From Escherichia phage JY01, in sequence record OR995200.1: 64,000 nt of DNA; one strand, written 5' to 3'. The notes beneath the pieces were generated by a model that ran no database searches, was not told the DNA's origin, and worked only from the letters and a program-made list of their open reading frames with translations. Positions within the stretch are counted from its first letter, which is position 1, and every line of letters begins with the position of its first letter. Made by a program: the position numbers and the translations under genes. Positions 1,259-45,209 of this stretch are shown here, in pieces.

Positions 1259-1510
1259 TCATTCCTTCTCTCTGATGATAATTACCTGATTTGGTTGTGC
1301 AGACTTTTTAGTTTCACCCGCAATTGACCAAATAAATGTAATAAACCAACCAATAATTGACCAGTTAAACAGTAAAGATGTGAAAAAGATTCCTACTGTC
1401 GATTTTGACCCACGCATCAAAGCAATAAACCATGGAAGCATGTATATAATAATAGCCAACACACCTGAAACTAAAACCATAAAAATTGAACCTGCTACTA
1501 AAGTTTCCAT
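1259..1510 (-). CDS. imm: Immunity (superinfection exclusion) membrane protein
   Basis: 83 aa, two hydrophobic helices, sits between 42 and 43 as in T4. Confidence 0.6.
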   Translation of the reverse strand: METLVAGSIFMVLVSGVLAIIIYMLPWFIALMRGSKSTVGIFFTSLLFNWSIIGWFITFIWSIAGETKKSAQPNQVIIIREKE

Positions 1511-2327: not shown

Positions 2328-5024
2328 TCAGCCAAACAGGAAGTCTAACGAAGCTTTTTCTTCATAGTCCATACCAGCCGATTCACACATGCCTGCAAGC
2401 GGTTTAACAAACGATTTTTGGAACAAAGTTGAGTAGTCAATCCAAGACAGTACGTCAGAACGAATTTCTTTTGGAAGTTCTGTACCCGACGGCCAAGCAA
2501 TGCATTTGTCACCAAATGGATTTCCTTCACGCAATGGAAGAACCATTACTTTATTTCCATCCAAAATTGGAGCTACACCTAAACCGCTAACAGCTCGACG
2601 ATAAGTTAGCACACCACGAATATGGAACGGACATTTAAATCCTGGCCAACCTTTATCATCATATTTCGCTATATCGTTCGCAGTTTTTACTTCAGCAATA
2701 ACTTTATAGTCAAGTTGACGATATTCTTTCTCGAAGTTCTTGTAATATTCTTGGACAGACTCTTCACCTTCCTGAAGAATACGACGGATACTTTCTTCAA
2801 GAGCTTCTTGGACCGCTTTAGGCGTTGAACTTTGCTGAGTTTCCATACCCATGATTTTTAGATGCGGTTCAGCAAATCGCTTATCTTCCATATCATAAAC
2901 GTTCAGAGCATAACGTTTTTTCGCTTTCCAAAATCCACCAACACCCTTTGAACCAAGTGGAGGGCAAGAAATAGCTTCACGGTCCATATGCATCAGATGC
3001 TCGCGGTTATTCATATAATCACATAACTCACGATATGCAACATCAATCATAGGTTCCATCTTTTTCTTACCGAACTGATTCATGAATTCAACTAAATCGT
3101 TCTGCTCTTTGAATCGGTCAAGACCAACTTTTTCAATAACTTTATCTACACAAACATATACCGAATCAGTATCACCTGCTGCGATGAAATCTTCGCCATT
3201 AGTTCCACATACTTTATTCAGATACTCATTAATTTTACGAGCAATCCACTGAATACCGACTTGACCAAAAATTGTAATAGCAGTAGCATTTCGCAAATCA
3301 TAGTAGCGGAAATGAATATTACCAAGAGCACCGTAAAGGCTGTTAATAAGAATTTTACGGTTCAGCTGATTTGTATTAGCAAGTGTAGCCGCTTTTTCAC
3401 ATTCTTCAATCAAACTATTGAGAACAGATTCAGTATAATTCGATAGTTCATTTAAGAAATCATCACTGAACTTAACATATCGTTTAACTTCAGGTTTAGT
3501 TGAACAAGACCCTGCGCCTTTCATAATAATCTTTTTAATAGCTTCGGCATTCATTTCTTCAGCGAACATTTTCTTTTTCCAATCTTTACGCTGGAAAAAT
3601 ACTTTAGCGATTTCCTTTGGAATGATACCTTCTTGATGCTTATCATACATCCATCCATTCGGAGAACAAGAATATTCATCACTCGGTTTAGGAGCTGTTC
3701 CTGCGATATATTCATGAATTGGATGAACTTTAAACTGACCACGAATAGTCTCAGGACTAATGTTAACCTGACGAATAATGCTCGGATACAGAGACGTCAA
3801 GTCAAAACTCATAATATATCGACGAGCAATTGGTTTAGGTTCAAATACAAATGCACCCGGAAAACTTTGTTTAACGTGCGAACCTTGTTGAGGAATAACC
3901 TTATGTTCACCTTTCAATGAGTTAAAAATAATAGCATCCCAAGTTTTAATAGGACTCATTACACCAGAAAAAGGCATTTTAGCATAATAAGACATACTTA
4001 AAACTAGATCGATAAACCCGCGAATTTTATCAATTGCTTGAACTGATTCTACGTCAATGATGTTATAACTAATGTATCGTTGATGATTAGTCTCACGAAG
4101 TTTATTAATAGGACCGTCGTATGGTAATTTACCTTTTTTGGTTTCATGCTGAGCAACTGATTCCAAAGAGAATGACGGCAAATTAGTAAATGCGAATTTC
4201 TTATACAAATCTAAATAATCAAGAATAGATACGCCATCAATAGAATAAATTTCTTTGCTACCGTACATATTTTGGATAAGTTTAGATTTTACTCGACCGA
4301 TTGGAGAGAAGCGTTTCATACTGCGTTCACCAAGAACCATTTTAACACGATTCATGATATACGGAACGTCAAATCCCTCAATATTCCAACCAGTAAAAAT
4401 AGCAGGTCGTTTCTGTTCCCAAAGATTAATATATTCCATGAGCATATCACGCTCATTATCGAATGGCATATAAATTACTCGGTCAAGAATTTCTTGAGGA
4501 ACTTCATCACCACCTTCACAGTCAAGCTTAGCAGCTAACTTTGCATCCCATTTTGATACTGAACCGTACATTGAATTCAAAAGGTCGAAAACATAAAAAC
4601 GATCATCAATTGAATCGTAATGAGTGATAGCATCAATTTCATATTCAGCTTTCATTGGGTCAGGAAATTTATCACCAGTAACCTCAATGTCACAGTTAGC
4701 TACACGAACAAATTTTCGGTCATAAACAATTTCTGAACCATATGTATCACTGATATAAGCGAGTTTAAAATCGTTCATACCGAGAGCTTCGAGACCGATG
4801 TCTTCCATTCGTTTCATCCAATCTCGAGCATCTTTCATTGATGGAAATTTTTGAGGAGCACAGTTTTTACCATAGATGTCTTTGTACTTTGACTCTTCCT
4901 TACAATGTCTAAACATAGTTGGAAGATATTCTACTTCACGAGTACGTTCCTTTCCGTTTTCATCAATATAACGTTCAACAATGTTATTTCCGACTGTTTC
5001 AATAGAGATATAAAATTCTTTCAT
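2328..5024 (-). CDS. 43: DNA polymerase (family B, with 3-5 exonuclease)
   Basis: 898 aa ORF; sequence matches T4 gp43 as recalled, including the DTDS polymerase motif. Confidence 0.95.
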   Translation of the reverse strand: MKEFYISIETVGNNIVERYIDENGKERTREVEYLPTMFRHCKEESKYKDIYGKNCAPQKFPSMKDARDWMKRMEDIGLEALGMNDFKLAYISDTYGSEIVYDRKFVRVANCDIEVTGDKFPDPMKAEYEIDAITHYDSIDDRFYVFDLLNSMYGSVSKWDAKLAAKLDCEGGDEVPQEILDRVIYMPFDNERDMLMEYINLWEQKRPAIFTGWNIEGFDVPYIMNRVKMVLGERSMKRFSPIGRVKSKLIQNMYGSKEIYSIDGVSILDYLDLYKKFAFTNLPSFSLESVAQHETKKGKLPYDGPINKLRETNHQRYISYNIIDVESVQAIDKIRGFIDLVLSMSYYAKMPFSGVMSPIKTWDAIIFNSLKGEHKVIPQQGSHVKQSFPGAFVFEPKPIARRYIMSFDLTSLYPSIIRQVNISPETIRGQFKVHPIHEYIAGTAPKPSDEYSCSPNGWMYDKHQEGIIPKEIAKVFFQRKDWKKKMFAEEMNAEAIKKIIMKGAGSCSTKPEVKRYVKFSDDFLNELSNYTESVLNSLIEECEKAATLANTNQLNRKILINSLYGALGNIHFRYYDLRNATAITIFGQVGIQWIARKINEYLNKVCGTNGEDFIAAGDTDSVYVCVDKVIEKVGLDRFKEQNDLVEFMNQFGKKKMEPMIDVAYRELCDYMNNREHLMHMDREAISCPPLGSKGVGGFWKAKKRYALNVYDMEDKRFAEPHLKIMGMETQQSSTPKAVQEALEESIRRILQEGEESVQEYYKNFEKEYRQLDYKVIAEVKTANDIAKYDDKGWPGFKCPFHIRGVLTYRRAVSGLGVAPILDGNKVMVLPLREGNPFGDKCIAWPSGTELPKEIRSDVLSWIDYSTLFQKSFVKPLAGMCESAGMDYEEKASLDFLFG

Positions 5025-39239: not shown

Positions 39240-39713
39240 TTATTTGAACGATTTAACGTACTGAATAGAACCCTTACTATTCACAAAGGCAATTTTACCA
39301 TTTTTATTATACATGGTAGCAGTACGCTGATAACCATAGGTTTGTTTACCAGATTGATAACCAACTAATGCAAAATTATCTTCACCCATTTTATTCTGTT
39401 TAGCGCGAATGCGTTCATGACCATGTGCCATAAGAACCTTAGCATCACCAGTTGCAATGGATCGACGAGTTTTTTCATCTTCAACTGCATTAACAAAGTC
39501 GTCAAATGAATCAAATTTAGCATGAGATTTATTATACAATTTTCCATCTACTGCATAATTATATCCCTGTACATCCATCTCAACTTCTGTACCATCATCC
39601 AATACAGCAGTAATTTTTTGACCTTTTTTAAATTTCAAAAGATCAGTAAAAGATTCAGCAATAATTTGAGAATTAATAGCTGCTTCAGTGATAAATTCTT
39701 GATATGTTTTCAT
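39240..39713 (-). CDS. Internal-protein-like protein with capsid targeting sequence
   Basis: N-terminus MKTYQEFITE followed by A (LxE-type prohead protease site). Confidence 0.55.
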   Translation of the reverse strand: MKTYQEFITEAAINSQIIAESFTDLLKFKKGQKITAVLDDGTEVEMDVQGYNYAVDGKLYNKSHAKFDSFDDFVNAVEDEKTRRSIATGDAKVLMAHGHERIRAKQNKMGEDNFALVGYQSGKQTYGYQRTATMYNKNGKIAFVNSKGSIQYVKSFK

Positions 39714-40198: not shown

Positions 40199-41167
<969 letters not shown>

Positions 41168-41186
<19 letters not shown>

Positions 41187-41656
41187 TCAGTGATAAAATT
41201 ATTTAAATTTTGAGTATATTTCTTTTCATCAAAAATCTTTTGCTGCCTACGTAACCGCCATGGCATTTCAATGAACACGCACCATATTCCTGATAGTACT
41301 GCTGCTGTAAAAATATTAACAAGTATAATTAAAAGAATCCAATCTTCCGTTCTGCCTACTGGACTTTCTCCAAAGAAGCAAAATACAAATGATGTCACAG
41401 GAAAACTAATAATATACCACAGAATAACCTTCTTATCTGTGAACCAATCAGCGTTCGTTAACTTAGCGCGACCATTATGAATACACACGAATTTATCATC
41501 TGTTATAATAGATGGCTTAGCTGCTTGATATCCCATTCTAAACTCCCTAATCAACAAATTTTTCATATCTTCAGAACAACCATTCCAGTCAACTCTATCA
41601 ACTGAAATGCCATCATCCCCATCATCTAAATCATACCAGCGAGTTTTTAAAATCAT
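41168..41656 (-). CDS. Membrane protein, C-terminal FITECRK motif
   Basis: Two hydrophobic helices; C-terminal FITECRKLK. Confidence 0.45.
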
Positions 41657-42027
41657 TTAATTTTCCTACAATCACTCACAAACTCTTCCATTGATTCTTT
41701 TTCAATATAAGACATGTAGCTATTATATTCCTTTAATTGTATTTTGTAATCTTTTTTTCTTTGCCAATTTATTTTAAAATTATCATAATGAAAATATAAC
41801 ATGGTACCAAAGAATGAAAATAATGAAATCGCTATAGTATAATGAAGTTCACTCCAAACTTCTATTATATCTATTATACCGCTGACGTTACTACGGATGT
41901 TTAAAATAAGACAGTCAATTAACAATCCAAAAAGACTACCCGCAAGAGCTGCAGCCAACGCTACAGCAAAAATTAAAAATGACTCAGGAAGAGAATATTT
42001 GACTTTATTTAGTTTTGGCTTTTGCAT
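41653..42027 (-). CDS. Membrane protein, C-terminal FVSDCRK motif
   Basis: Hydrophobic helices; C-terminal FVSDCRKIK. Confidence 0.45.
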   Translation of the reverse strand: MQKPKLNKVKYSLPESFLIFAVALAAALAGSLFGLLIDCLILNIRSNVSGIIDIIEVWSELHYTIAISLFSFFGTMLYFHYDNFKINWQRKKDYKIQLKEYNSYMSYIEKESMEEFVSDCRKIK

Positions 42028-42422
42028 CGTGATTCCTTAACAAATTTCATAATTTCATCAAATTCATGCGCAGCAAGTTTAAGCTGATGTTCCTTTTTAA
42101 TCTTTTTACACTGAGCTTTCCAATCACGTACACGTTTACGATAGTGTCTTCCTTGATACCAATATCCTATCCAATTTATAGGTACTAATAAAAGCGGAAC
42201 TACCAACGGAAGAATTAGTGTTGCTCCAAATATTGCACCAGATTCAATATCAGTCATAACGTCTATAACCATTCCAGCAATCACCAGAATCACAAATGAT
42301 ACAACTACCACAGGACCTATTAACACATCAGTAGAAATTATCTGACGCTTTAATTCATACTTCAACGGTTTACTTGGAAGGTATAGTGATGGTTTTGACA
42401 TATTCTCTACATTCCTTAACAA
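42009..42422 (-). CDS. Membrane protein, C-terminal FVKESRCK motif
   Basis: Hydrophobic helices; C-terminal FVKESRCKSQN. Confidence 0.45.
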   Translation of the reverse strand: MLRNVENMSKPSLYLPSKPLKYELKRQIISTDVLIGPVVVVSFVILVIAGMVIDVMTDIESGAIFGATLILPLVVPLLLVPINWIGYWYQGRHYRKRVRDWKAQCKKIKKEHQLKLAAHEFDEIMKFVKESRCKSQN

Positions 42423-42978
42423 ATTTTTCTAATAATAAATCGCTTTCAAAATTGGGATTTTCTACGAATTTATCAAAAAGATCATCGACAATAGTTAAGA
42501 TATTCTTTTTACTAAGAATACGTTTATTTTCATATTTTGTTTCAGAGTCAACTATAAGAGTAAAGAAATATTTCTTGCCCTGAAATTTTACAGTAGTATC
42601 AATATAGAATAAATTTGACTTTTGTAAATTACGTTTAAACCATGCATCACTTAAACTATAAACGCCAAGATAATCATAATCGTCGTTTAAATAACAGACC
42701 GTCCATTCAGGAGAAACAAAATCAGTAAATTCAACGTCAAAATCGCATGTTAATAAATGAATTGATTCAATACTGTTAATAAGTATTCCAGGACGTATTA
42801 AAGACTTTTTACCTCTAGAAAATCTTCCAGAAAGATTTTCAACAGTTTCATATGAAGAACCCCAATAATAATTACGTCCTTCTGCCATACGTTTAAGAGC
42901 ATTTAATAATTGGTCTGGAACATCAACCTGTCTTTGGAACTCTTCAAACATTGAATTGAAATCACTTTGCATTTTCAT
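42370..42978 (-). CDS. Hypothetical protein with FVKECREY motif
   Basis: 202 aa; C-terminal FVKECREYVK. Confidence 0.45.
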   Translation of the reverse strand: MKMQSDFNSMFEEFQRQVDVPDQLLNALKRMAEGRNYYWGSSYETVENLSGRFSRGKKSLIRPGILINSIESIHLLTCDFDVEFTDFVSPEWTVCYLNDDYDYLGVYSLSDAWFKRNLQKSNLFYIDTTVKFQGKKYFFTLIVDSETKYENKRILSKKNILTIVDDLFDKFVENPNFESDLLLEKFVKECREYVKTITIPSK

Positions 42979-42996: not shown

Positions 42997-43016
42997 ATAG
43001 GGGCCGAAGCCCCTTA
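42997..43016 (-). terminator. UUCG-tetraloop RNA hairpin
   Basis: RNA-sense AGGGGC-UUCG-GCCCCU after stop of 43020-43613 gene. Confidence 0.45.
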
Positions 43017-43019
43017 TCA

Positions 43020-43613
43020 TTATTTCAGAGAATTAATATATTCCTGAACATCGGCAGAGGTAGTTTCAACCCCAGAAATATTACCATTAAAGGTTTCAAC
43101 TCGAGCAAGAGTATCTTCAATATCAACCTTAGTCAGTGCTGCAATTTCAACTACATCATCAGCAGTACTAATTCCAAGGGCATTCGCGGCGCGAGTTTCA
43201 CGGATATATTCCAATTTAACTGCAAGTTCTTGGCGAGCATCATCTAACTCAACTACTTTCTTGGCGATTTCAATTCGCATTTCAGCATAACCATCAGCTT
43301 TAGTAGTCAACTGCTCAGCTGTTCGACGATATAGTAAACCAAGTTTAGCATGCATTGTTACATCTTGACCTTCCGAAAGGAGCTTGCGAATTTCACGCTC
43401 TTTTGATTCGGCCTGCTTATTCTTTTCGACAATAAGTTCACGAATACGCTTTTCTTCATTAATAGATTTAACAGAAGCAGTTTTTAGATCTTTAATTTTA
43501 TCAAGCAATTTTGCTGCTGCGGCAGTATACTGCTCTTCAACAGATAGATTTTTAGCCATAGCAGAACCAAGTTTAGTGCGAATAAACTCAACAATTTTCT
43601 TCAGTGTGTTCAT
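43020..43613 (-). CDS. Coiled-coil protein, possibly PspA/IM30-like
   Basis: All-helical heptad-rich 197 aa; [15 protein letters not shown] resembles a PspA segment as recalled. Confidence 0.4.
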
Positions 43614-44735: not shown

Positions 44736-45209
44736 TTATTTGATTTGTTTAGCAGACCAAATGCGGTCTTTAATAATTTTTTGGATATCTTCAACATACT
44801 CAAGAGAGTGAGCATGTGGGTTATCTTTGAAACTATAAGCACGAGCTAGTTTTTGGCCTTCAGTTTTGATTACTAAAAGCTCTTTAAGGATAGCTTCATA
44901 TTTGGAGATAATTCCTTTAACAATATTTTTCTCTTGTGCGACTTTAGGATCTGCTTTAGGAGCAGGTTTACCCGAAGCCTTTGCAAAAGCAGCGCCAGTA
45001 GCAACTAAACTTTTCCAGGCCATACTAACTGCATTTCCCGTAAATCCTTCCGCTTTCATGTCGCGTGCGAACTGGAATCGTGATTCATCAGAAGCATCTT
45101 TGTAAGAATATTTACCCGCTGCAATGGCTGCTTTTGCGACAGCTTGAATTTCGGTGCTAGATGCTTCATTTAACACCGCTTCATTTAAAAATTGAGTATA
45201 TGATTTCAT
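44736..45209 (-). CDS. Internal-protein-like protein with capsid targeting sequence
   Basis: N-terminus MKSYTQFLNE followed by A; Ala/Lys-rich; late promoter TATAAATA upstream. Confidence 0.5.
   Translation of the reverse strand: MKSYTQFLNEAVLNEASSTEIQAVAKAAIAAGKYSYKDASDESRFQFARDMKAEGFTGNAVSMAWKSLVATGAAFAKASGKPAPKADPKVAQEKNIVKGIISKYEAILKELLVIKTEGQKLARAYSFKDNPHAHSLEYVEDIQKIIKDRIWSAKQIK

Follow-up and report, generated by a model that had tools for sequence, protein, structure and literature searches.

Four consecutive minus-strand open reading frames (ORFs) in Escherichia phage JY01 encode proteins that all end in a helix with the consensus L-E-x-F-I-x-E-C-R-K. They lie in a 64,000-nucleotide (nt) stretch of sequence record OR995200.1, which was analyzed as a whole (hereafter, the window; coordinates refer to it unless another locus is named) and is ~98% identical to Tequatrovirus RB51, RB68, and wV7. 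By sequence and gene order, the window is assigned to Tequatrovirus and the four ORFs to T4 genes e.2, e.3, e.4, and e.5. T4 is the best-studied large lytic phage, and about half of its genes, e.2–e.6 among them, have no known function. In related phages, the C-terminal motif, or tag, recurs on the products of genes lying downstream of e.6, itself a conserved gene, and its codons overlap the putative ribosome-binding region of the next gene. The best explanation of these data is that e.2–e.5 encode co-transcribed, translationally coupled accessory proteins. That the motif serves them as a shared cytoplasmic docking or assembly helix stands, in our judgment, at about even chances.

A shared C-terminal motif at the e.2–e.5 locus

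The motif is real, highly non-random, and specific to this locus. Across all six-frame ORFs of at least 50 amino acids (aa) in the window (27,865 residues), the pattern F[VI].[ED]CR[KE] occurs three times, in e.2, e.3, and e.5, each time no more than 17 aa from the C-terminus; from typical residue frequencies we estimate that ~0.002 matches would be expected by chance. The pattern F[IVL]..CR is likewise found only in e.2, e.3, and e.5 within the window. Outside this locus, the T4 genome, scanned over 76,258 ORF residues, has no C-terminal match even to the looser [FW][IVL]..C[RK]. The product of e.4 bears the variant F-V-K-E-S-R-C-K, in which the Cys is displaced by two residues and the R-C codons contain the ATG of e.3. 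In e.5, the motif lies 17 aa before the C-terminal end.

An earlier sequence-only reading of this DNA had described four genes with a common C-terminal motif, membrane helices in three of the products, and overlapping start and stop codons. These claims were borne out: the C-termini are as that reading gave them, with e.4 as the variant; hydropathy places helices in e.2, e.3, and e.4; and successive genes overlap by 32 nt (e.5/e.4), 19 nt (e.4/e.3), and 4 nt each (e.3/e.2 and e.2/nudE, as ATGA). The ORFs are evidently coding, being conserved across more than 600 phage genomes and each matching its own PHROG family (full-profile matches: e.2, 2203, E = 2.5e-78; e.3, 2330, E = 7.5e-63; e.4, 2604, E = 1.8e-69; e.5, 2607, E = 1.1e-108).

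Across 26 tails from the window and its relatives, the consensus is [LI]-[EN]-x-F-[IV]-K-E-C-R-K. Phe or Trp occupies the aromatic position in all 26, Ile or Val follows in 25, the Cys is present in 21, and the Arg position is Arg in 23 and either Arg or Lys in all 26. Given that Cys and Arg are substituted in some families, the motif is looser than the four window copies suggest. Hydrophobic positions -3, 0, +1, and +4 fall on one helical face, as in an amphipathic helix. One other identity for the motif, a prohead-protease site (I-x-E, cut before C-R-K), was considered and rejected because the Glu is not conserved in other genera.

Selection on the peptide and overlap with the next ribosome-binding region

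The Phe codon of the motif precedes the next ATG by 17 to 26 nt in each of the four genes, regardless of the distance to the gene's own stop, and a Shine-Dalgarno-like sequence is embedded each time (Table 1). The codons that supply it differ: K-E codons (AAGGAA) do so in e.5, e.4, RB69 e.3, and a Dhakavirus e.2-like gene; R-K codons (AGGAAA) in Tequatrovirus e.3 and e.2; and R-G-K codons (CGAGGAAAA) in RB69ORF133c. Because different motif codons serve in different genes, the peptide is not fixed by a single RNA register. A 16-nt stretch, AAATTTGTTAAGGAAT, is identical between the e.5/e.4 and e.4/e.3 junctions, and this identity, together with the embedded Shine-Dalgarno sequences, raises the possibility that the motif is a by-product of gene overlap. 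A RegA translational operator at the repeated AAAUUUGUUAAGGAAU, which resembles the consensus from systematic evolution of ligands by exponential enrichment (SELEX), was also considered and was dropped because synonymous polymorphism in the tails is normal.

Comparison of alleles shows that selection on the protein maintains the peptide. Among 14 to 16 distinct Tequatrovirus alleles, the ratio of nonsynonymous to synonymous polymorphism (pN/pS) was 0.09, 0.13, and 0.15 in the tails of e.2, e.3, and e.4, compared with 0.57, 0.51, and 0.71 in the membrane segments. As pS was about equal in tails and membrane segments (0.16–0.20), the tail nucleotides seem free to drift and the amino acids do not. 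Across families, the Arg is encoded by AGG, AGA, CGA, or CGT, the Phe by TTT or TTC, and the Cys by TGT or TGC. The motif is kept in RB69 (Mosigvirus), where e.3–e.5 are only 38–52% identical, and in Dhakavirus e.2-like proteins at 31–43% identity. It is also kept in proteins of Roth34 (102 aa), PG7 (117 aa), Aes012 (288 aa), and FB (109 aa) that have no overlapping next gene and are followed by a gap of ~30–80 nt.

The same DNA has left traces of recombination. In T2 and in metagenomic locus L012, e.2 is absent and e.3, ending in DCRKLK-stop, runs straight into nudE; a clean deletion between the 9-nt repeats TGCAGGAAA at the e.3 and e.2 ends has removed e.2 and left a chimeric terminus, e.3 sequence joined to the end of e.2 (L007 2300-2420 for T2; L012 4375-4737). 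In Escherichia phage vB_EcoM-UFV05 (UFV05; protein P0068), residues 1–31 of e.4 are fused to e.2 from its first membrane helix onward, so that the remainder of e.4, the whole of e.3, and the e.2 N-terminal domain are missing; the two parts meet in the first membrane helix, where e.4 and e.2 have similar P-V...S-F-V segments. In some Mosigviruses, the body of e.3 has been lost and a 25-aa ORF (MISYNELLARRENETIENFIKECRK, then stop) remains as the tail, still overlapping the start of the next gene. Judged from these junctions, the motif repeats mediated cassette loss and fusion. Early promoters with terminators of the kind found in promoter/stem-loop cassettes (PeSLs) were absent from the four junctions, which consist of overlapping coding sequence; the only strong promoter-like site and stem-loop flank e.6.

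These observations bear on two explanations in which the peptide itself matters little. If the motif were a by-product of gene overlap and of tandem duplication of a translation-initiation region, its peptide would be functionless. The spacing of 17–26 nt to the next ATG, the Shine-Dalgarno-like sequence at every junction, and the 16 identical nucleotides all fit that account; a tail-to-tail duplication unit would explain the same end on the unrelated e.5, and all that survives of e.3 in some Mosigviruses is its tail, still coupled to the following gene. Tails with a pN/pS of 0.09–0.15 at normal pS are hard to reconcile with a functionless peptide, as are an Arg kept through four different codons and a Shine-Dalgarno sequence supplied by K-E codons in some genes and R-K codons in others, with F, I, C, and R unchanged. 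The motif also persists where the next gene starts 30–80 nt away and in proteins with 13–20% identity or nothing else in common, and we regard the by-product explanation as unlikely. A related idea, that the motif DNA exists mainly as short homology for cassette gain, loss, and swapping, draws on the crossover inside TGCAGGAAA in T2 and L012, the UFV05 fusion, the variable presence of e.2 and e.3 between close relatives, and the precedent of PeSLs for modular shuffling in T4-type phages (PMC2839356, PMC4122927). The repeats within one genome span only 9–16 nt, however, the junctions have no promoter or terminator of the PeSL kind, the UFV05 crossover falls in the first membrane helix outside the motif, and conservation holds at the amino-acid level across genera with diverged DNA. 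Given the short repeats, the missing PeSL structure, and the selection on the protein, recombination would be a consequence of the repeats and not their purpose, and we consider this second account quite improbable. Three functions converge on one stretch of 20–30 nt: it encodes the protein motif, supplies a ribosome-binding site, and offers microhomology for recombination.

Distribution of the tag and its association with e.6

The sequence-only reading had proposed a search for the motif in other phages. When e.6 was followed into more distant phages, the tag turned up on ~30 proteins, soluble and two-helix membrane proteins alike and many otherwise unrelated, whose genes lie downstream of e.6 in ten lineages of Straboviridae. 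It was seen in Tequatro-, Mosig-, Dhaka-, Karam-, Moon-, Tulane-, and Pseudotevenvirus together with unclassified Klebsiella and Pectobacterium phages. Strict matches are all on the gene strand and 7–21 aa from the C-terminus, with ~0.03 expected per locus by our own estimate. The number of tagged proteins per phage varies, from six in Karamvirus PG7 and five in Klebsiella phage Roth34 to four in Moonvirus KM16 (two in looser form), three in Dhakavirus FB, and one each in Aeromonas phage Aes012, the Pseudotevenviruses RB43 and EBPL, and Pectobacterium phage POP12. RB69ORF133c-type proteins and a Mosigvirus e.2-like protein also carry it. The gene e.6 itself was found in 1106 phage records. A soluble protein with the motif is encoded one or two genes after it in most of the lineages examined, a place taken in PG7 by an apparent frameshifted remnant.

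These soluble proteins are difficult to connect by sequence. Profile alignment with hhalign relates e.5 to a 178-aa protein of Dhakavirus FB (P = 1e-5), and the counterparts in Klebsiella phage Roth34, RB43, and the Aeromonas phage align with e.5 by sequence in the tail only. By structure, a Foldseek search of BFVD matched e.5 with proteins of Klebsiella and Erwinia phages (E ~1e-5). An exhaustive HMMER search of 1.84 billion representatives with e.5 returned only five hits, two of them substantial (201 aa at 95% identity and a 138-aa fragment at 46%), so that no deep e.5 alignment could be built. From these searches, the e.5 family appears to be restricted to phages. Profile searches of billions of database proteins with e.3 and e.5 gave no relatives outside T4-like phages, and among the matches listed for a combined hairpin-plus-tail profile, all came from the query's own families. 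An e.4 profile retrieved 6 loci from IMG/VR and 10 from a metagenome collection, all Tequatrovirus-like or RB69-like at ~50% identity. A scan at the DNA level, using a degenerate pattern that encodes F-I-x-E-C-R-K-stop and includes the ATGA overlap, identified no new phage group; it recovered only Dhakavirus e.2-like genes and RB69-type (Mosigvirus-like) e.3 genes, plus ~11 chance matches.

A tag found across the downstream neighbors of one conserved gene suggests that these ORFs form one module rather than a set of unrelated accessory genes. It also provides an annotation rule for fast-evolving ORFs that sequence searches cannot link, and a concrete, directly testable handle on a block of T4 genes with no known function. 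We found no prior description of the tag, its spread, or its triple role, in a literature search limited by gene names such as "e.5" that are unsearchable on their own.

In Mosig-, Dhaka-, Karam-, and Moonvirus, the tagged array is closely followed by small soluble ORFs (52–124 aa) that form a second C-terminal motif family, ending in G-W-V-S-S-S-x-x-C-stop (Table 1). No member was found in the window or in the scanned parts of T4 (1–50 kb and 90–169 kb).

Gene layout and annotation

The gene order is e.6, e.5, e.4, e.3, e.2, nudE, e, with order and overlaps as in RB51 and T4; e.6 lies upstream of the four genes, and nudE, the lysozyme gene e, and denV lie downstream, as identified through annotated relatives. 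The last 10 codons of e.5 overlap the start of e.4 in a different frame. For e.4, the start is most likely the ATG at 42401 (MSKPSLY...) and not the listed TTG at 42422; this ATG is also conserved in RB69.

Table 1. Coordinates of the tagged genes, their neighbors and junctions, and related loci in other phages
Feature	Position	Strand	Description
nudE (Nudix hydrolase)	40731..41171	-	Last translationally coupled gene of the string
e.2	41168..41656	-	162 aa; predicted cytoplasmic N-terminal domain (1-76), two-helix hairpin, basic tail
e.3	41653..42027	-	124 aa; predicted membrane hairpin, 44-aa tail ending ...ESMEEFVSDCRKIK-stop; C-terminus ...EEFVSDCRKIK-stop
e.4	42009..42401	-	130 aa from the conserved ATG; predicted hairpin, 52-aa basic tail; ends ...MKFVKESRCKSQN-stop; variant motif ...EIMKFVKESRCKSQN-stop
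e.5	42370..42978	-	202 aa, predicted soluble; ends ...EKFVKECREYVKTITIPSK-stop
e.6	43020..43613	-	197 aa; conserved upstream gene, context only
e.2/nudE junction	41169..41197	-	TTT ATC ACT GAA TGC AGG AAA TTA AAA TGA; R-K codons form AGGAAA, putative Shine-Dalgarno for nudE
e.3/e.2 junction	41654..41682	-	TTT GTG AGT GAT TGT AGG AAA ATT AAA TGA; R-K codons form AGGAAA, putative Shine-Dalgarno for e.2
e.4/e.3 junction	42025..42047	-	TTT GTT AAG GAA TCA CGA TGC; AAGGAA 7 nt upstream of the e.3 ATG
e.5/e.4 junction	42401..42426	-	TTT GTT AAG GAA TGT AGA GAA; Shine-Dalgarno-like AAGGAA and GAGAA upstream of ATG 42401
Mosigvirus e.3 remnant loci	L015 about 4393-4500; L043 2300-2323; L024		
G-W-V-S-S-S ORFs	L003 4938-5585; L015 4492-5286; L027 6275-6828; L028 6523-7561; L055 6063-6846		

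The T4 orthologues of e.3–e.5 are 84–93% identical, with the same order, overlaps, and C-termini. In the old T4 entry GenBank L13089, e.2, e.3, e.4, and e.5 were deposited as msp7, msp6, msp5, and msp4, and the T4 annotation describes e.2–e.5 as "conserved hypothetical, predicted membrane protein" with no function recorded. In reference T4 (NC_000866 67479-67969; L004 3480-3970), e.2 is interrupted by frameshifts and annotated at 102 aa, with remnants of the second membrane helix and tail persisting in other frames; the gene is intact at 162 aa in the window phage and most relatives.

Early expression of e.2–e.5 is suggested by a strong early-type promoter-like site upstream of e.6 (43684-43656). 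Between e.6 and e.5 is a GC-rich stem-loop (42999-43014, GGGGC-TTCG-GCCCC) that lacks a clear coding-strand T-run. Instead of terminating transcription, it may attenuate it or stabilize the transcript.

A Pfam scan of e.2–e.6 returned nothing meaningful, with no match at E ≤1 for PspC or PspB; the copy scanned did not contain PF26876, PF26873, and PF26896, which precomputed annotations assign to homologues of e.5, e.4, and e.2. PADLOC defense models gave no match to e.2–e.6 at E ≤1, and sequence searches of PDB with e.5, e.6, and an e.6 profile gave no match.

Membrane topology and kinship of the four proteins

Topology prediction, a check proposed in the sequence-only reading, gave hairpins for e.2–e.4 and a soluble e.5. 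Kyte-Doolittle analysis places helices at residues 77–96 and 106–130 of e.2 and 25–47 and 56–78 of e.4; e.3 has a strong segment at 16–42 and a weaker second one at 62–80 (mean Kyte-Doolittle value 1.0), and e.5 has no membrane segment. The predicted periplasmic loops of e.2, e.3, and e.4 measure 9, 19, and 8 aa. Because the loops are acidic (net charge -2) and the tails basic (+6, +2, and +9), the three proteins are predicted to be two-helix inner-membrane hairpins with both termini inside and the tails in the cytoplasm. The AlphaFold2 model of e.5 is an alpha/beta fold with two C-terminal helices (predicted local distance difference test, pLDDT, 61.5; predicted template modeling score, pTM, 0.61), and its motif, LLLEKFVKECREYVK, falls within the last helix (181–196).

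The membrane and loop segments of e.2–e.4 (41380-41940) have a pN/pS four to six times that of the tails. Close phages appear to have these segments in mosaic form, and it is mainly here that the Dhakavirus e.2-like alleles diverge.

The four genes fall in separate PHROGs. Full-length Smith-Waterman comparison of e.3 and e.4 gave z = 4.0 (p = 0.002), hhalign aligned 38 of their tail columns (P = 5e-5), and the two share the N-terminus M-[QS]-K-P-x-L; they are probably diverged paralogues. The C-terminal half of e.2 aligns with e.3 over 16 columns of the tail only (P = 9e-5), and paralogy of e.2 with e.3 and e.4 is possible. For e.5, the alignment with e.3 covers ~14 tail columns and nothing else (P = 4e-3), and paralogy with the other three is not supported. 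The description of the locus as a duplicated array does not fit e.5, an unrelated soluble protein that shares only the tail.

A proposed docking role and its alternatives

As a docking or assembly helix, the tail would work as short address peptides and partner-binding tails do elsewhere: at the inner membrane, on its cytoplasmic side, it would recruit its carriers to a single shared partner or into contact with one another. The rapidly evolving membrane hairpins would serve as anchors or specificity modules that can be exchanged. More speculatively, e.6 may be the common partner, and the e.2–e.6 module may manage inner-membrane integrity during infection. The docking reading draws on the locus specificity of the motif, selection on the peptide, the varying codons behind the Shine-Dalgarno sequence, persistence where no downstream gene overlaps, the spread of the tag, its pairing with e.6, the predicted cytoplasmic position of all three hairpin tails with the e.5 motif in a terminal helix, and the precedent of PspC. 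Several points weigh against this proposal. Synteny with e.6 could reflect merely a shared operon. Dual coding forces some conservation of the overlaps, and pS in the e.5 tail is 0.054. The e.5 model is of low confidence, as its pLDDT indicates. The Cys is replaced by Ser, Ile, Val, or Met in e.4-like proteins and one other family, and the Arg by Lys in Pseudotevenvirus. Finally, knockdown of T4 e.2–e.6 causes no laboratory fitness defect, and reference T4 tolerates its frameshifted e.2. CRISPRi-ART places the knockdowns of e.2–e.6 and of nudE in its "Not Fit" category, which denotes the absence of a fitness defect, and gives the essentiality of these genes as unknown (PMC11879866, supplementary file 25); these genes appear in that supplement only, and the main texts of HIDEN-SEQ and CRISPRi-ART do not mention e.2–e.6. 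Since knockdown is harmless in the laboratory and a frameshifted e.2 is tolerated, any function would be conditional.

The role that the sequence-only reading had suggested for the array, in superinfection exclusion, lysis timing, or receptor interference, found no support. On such an account, e.2–e.4 would exclude superinfecting phages in the manner of Imm or Sp, set the timing of lysis, or interfere with receptors, with the motif incidental to that role. They are indeed small two-helix inner-membrane proteins, probably expressed early, encoded near the lysozyme gene e, and dispensable in the laboratory, and their membrane and loop segments evolve fast (pN/pS 0.5–0.7), as at an arms-race interface. 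T4 Imm is expressed early, and because Imm and Sp are likewise dispensable in the laboratory, the harmless knockdowns are compatible with such roles. However, the Imm-like protein of the window (1259-1480) matched e.2–e.5 with a best BLASTP E of 4.7 in a six-sequence database, no Pfam or PADLOC defense model matched, and the periplasmic loops are only 8–19 aa long. Soluble e.5, the conserved cytoplasmic tail, and the link to e.6 would all go unexplained, and we consider this account unlikely. An alternative of another kind is cysteine chemistry, with Cys-Arg serving in interchain metal binding, in a disulfide, or as a site of acylation or Arg ADP-ribosylation. The frequency of Cys and Arg among the 26 tails would suit it, as would the Arg-specific ADP-ribosyltransferases of T4 and the ADP-ribose-active Nudix enzyme encoded by the next gene. 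Against it, the Cys gives way to Ser, Ile, Val, or Met in several families, in the manner of a small hydrophobic helix position; each motif has a single Cys; and a cytoplasmic location speaks against disulfides. We consider cysteine chemistry highly unlikely.

For the docking helix, the nature of e.6 is of particular interest. The protein is predicted to form a long helical hairpin plus a third helix, with ambiguous fold matches that are Vipp1/PspA- or BAR-like. It is conceivable, though in our view improbable, that e.6 is a peripheral-membrane scaffold of the PspA/Vipp1/ESCRT-III or BAR type for which the tail helix is the docking peptide, making the locus a phage analogue of the Psp system. 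The PspA_IM30 profile did not match six diverse e.6 homologues at E ≤10, an e.6 profile search of PDB returned neither PspA nor Vipp1, and an hhalign comparison of e.6 with Escherichia coli PspA, for which an approximate sequence was used, was not significant. Were e.6 such a scaffold, a soluble e.5-like holder and the changing hairpins would compete for it through the same tail, and partner switching would direct membrane stabilization or repair during infection. This could counter host abortive-infection effectors that depolarize the inner membrane, or hold the membrane during lysis inhibition, and the arms-race interface would lie in the rapidly evolving membrane segments. If e.6 proves to be both the partner and a membrane-remodeling scaffold, the module would represent a new kind of phage-encoded membrane-maintenance system.

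Comparison with known systems

Like T4 Imm, the products of e.2–e.4 are small inner-membrane proteins with two hydrophobic segments that are non-essential in the laboratory. Imm differs in that it has no sequence similarity to e.2–e.5, no C-terminal tag, and no long cytoplasmic tail. Beside gene 42, at 1113-1480 on the minus strand near its start, the window encodes the Imm-like protein (73 aa, two membrane helices), which is overlapped by a hydrophobic ORF of 49 aa. Neither resembles e.2–e.4. The holin T and antiholin RI have a sizeable periplasmic domain, in contrast to the short loops of e.2–e.4.

The T4 internal proteins IPI, IPII, IPIII, and Ip4 carry an N-terminal capsid-targeting tag that is cleaved by the prohead protease. 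As with the tail described here, a sequence of ~10 residues is common to unrelated, fast-evolving accessory proteins of a hyperplastic region; it gives them a common address, and within T4 it is the nearest precedent for one tag on hypervariable proteins. The capsid-targeting tag is N-terminal and directed to the capsid, whereas that of e.2–e.5 is C-terminal and borne by membrane and cytoplasmic proteins. The window also encodes Ip4 (39240-39713, minus strand) with the capsid-targeting N-terminus MKTYQEFITEA, and a 157-aa ORF (44736-45209, minus strand) that starts similarly, MKSYTQFLNEA; the RB51 counterpart of this ORF is annotated with a flanking 34-bp imperfect direct repeat.

As boundary elements, the motif repeats recall PeSLs, non-coding repeats that mediate cassette gain and loss in hyperplastic regions (PMC2839356, PMC4122927). 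Both are short, lie at gene boundaries in hyperplastic regions, and mediate cassette turnover. PeSLs consist of a non-coding promoter and terminator, whereas the e.2–e.5 repeats are coding, lie in coupled genes, and are conserved as protein.

The closest mechanistic parallel to the proposed docking helix is the bacterial phage-shock (Psp) system, in which PspC, a small polytopic inner-membrane protein, uses its C-terminal cytoplasmic domain to bind PspA, a long helical peripheral-membrane protein for which soluble PspF competes (PMC5596341). No sequence relationship and no PspC or PspA_IM30 Pfam match connects the two, and the analogy is one of mechanism only. The likeness lies in the parts: hairpins with cytoplasmic tails, a soluble protein with the same tail, and, encoded next to them, the long-helical e.6.

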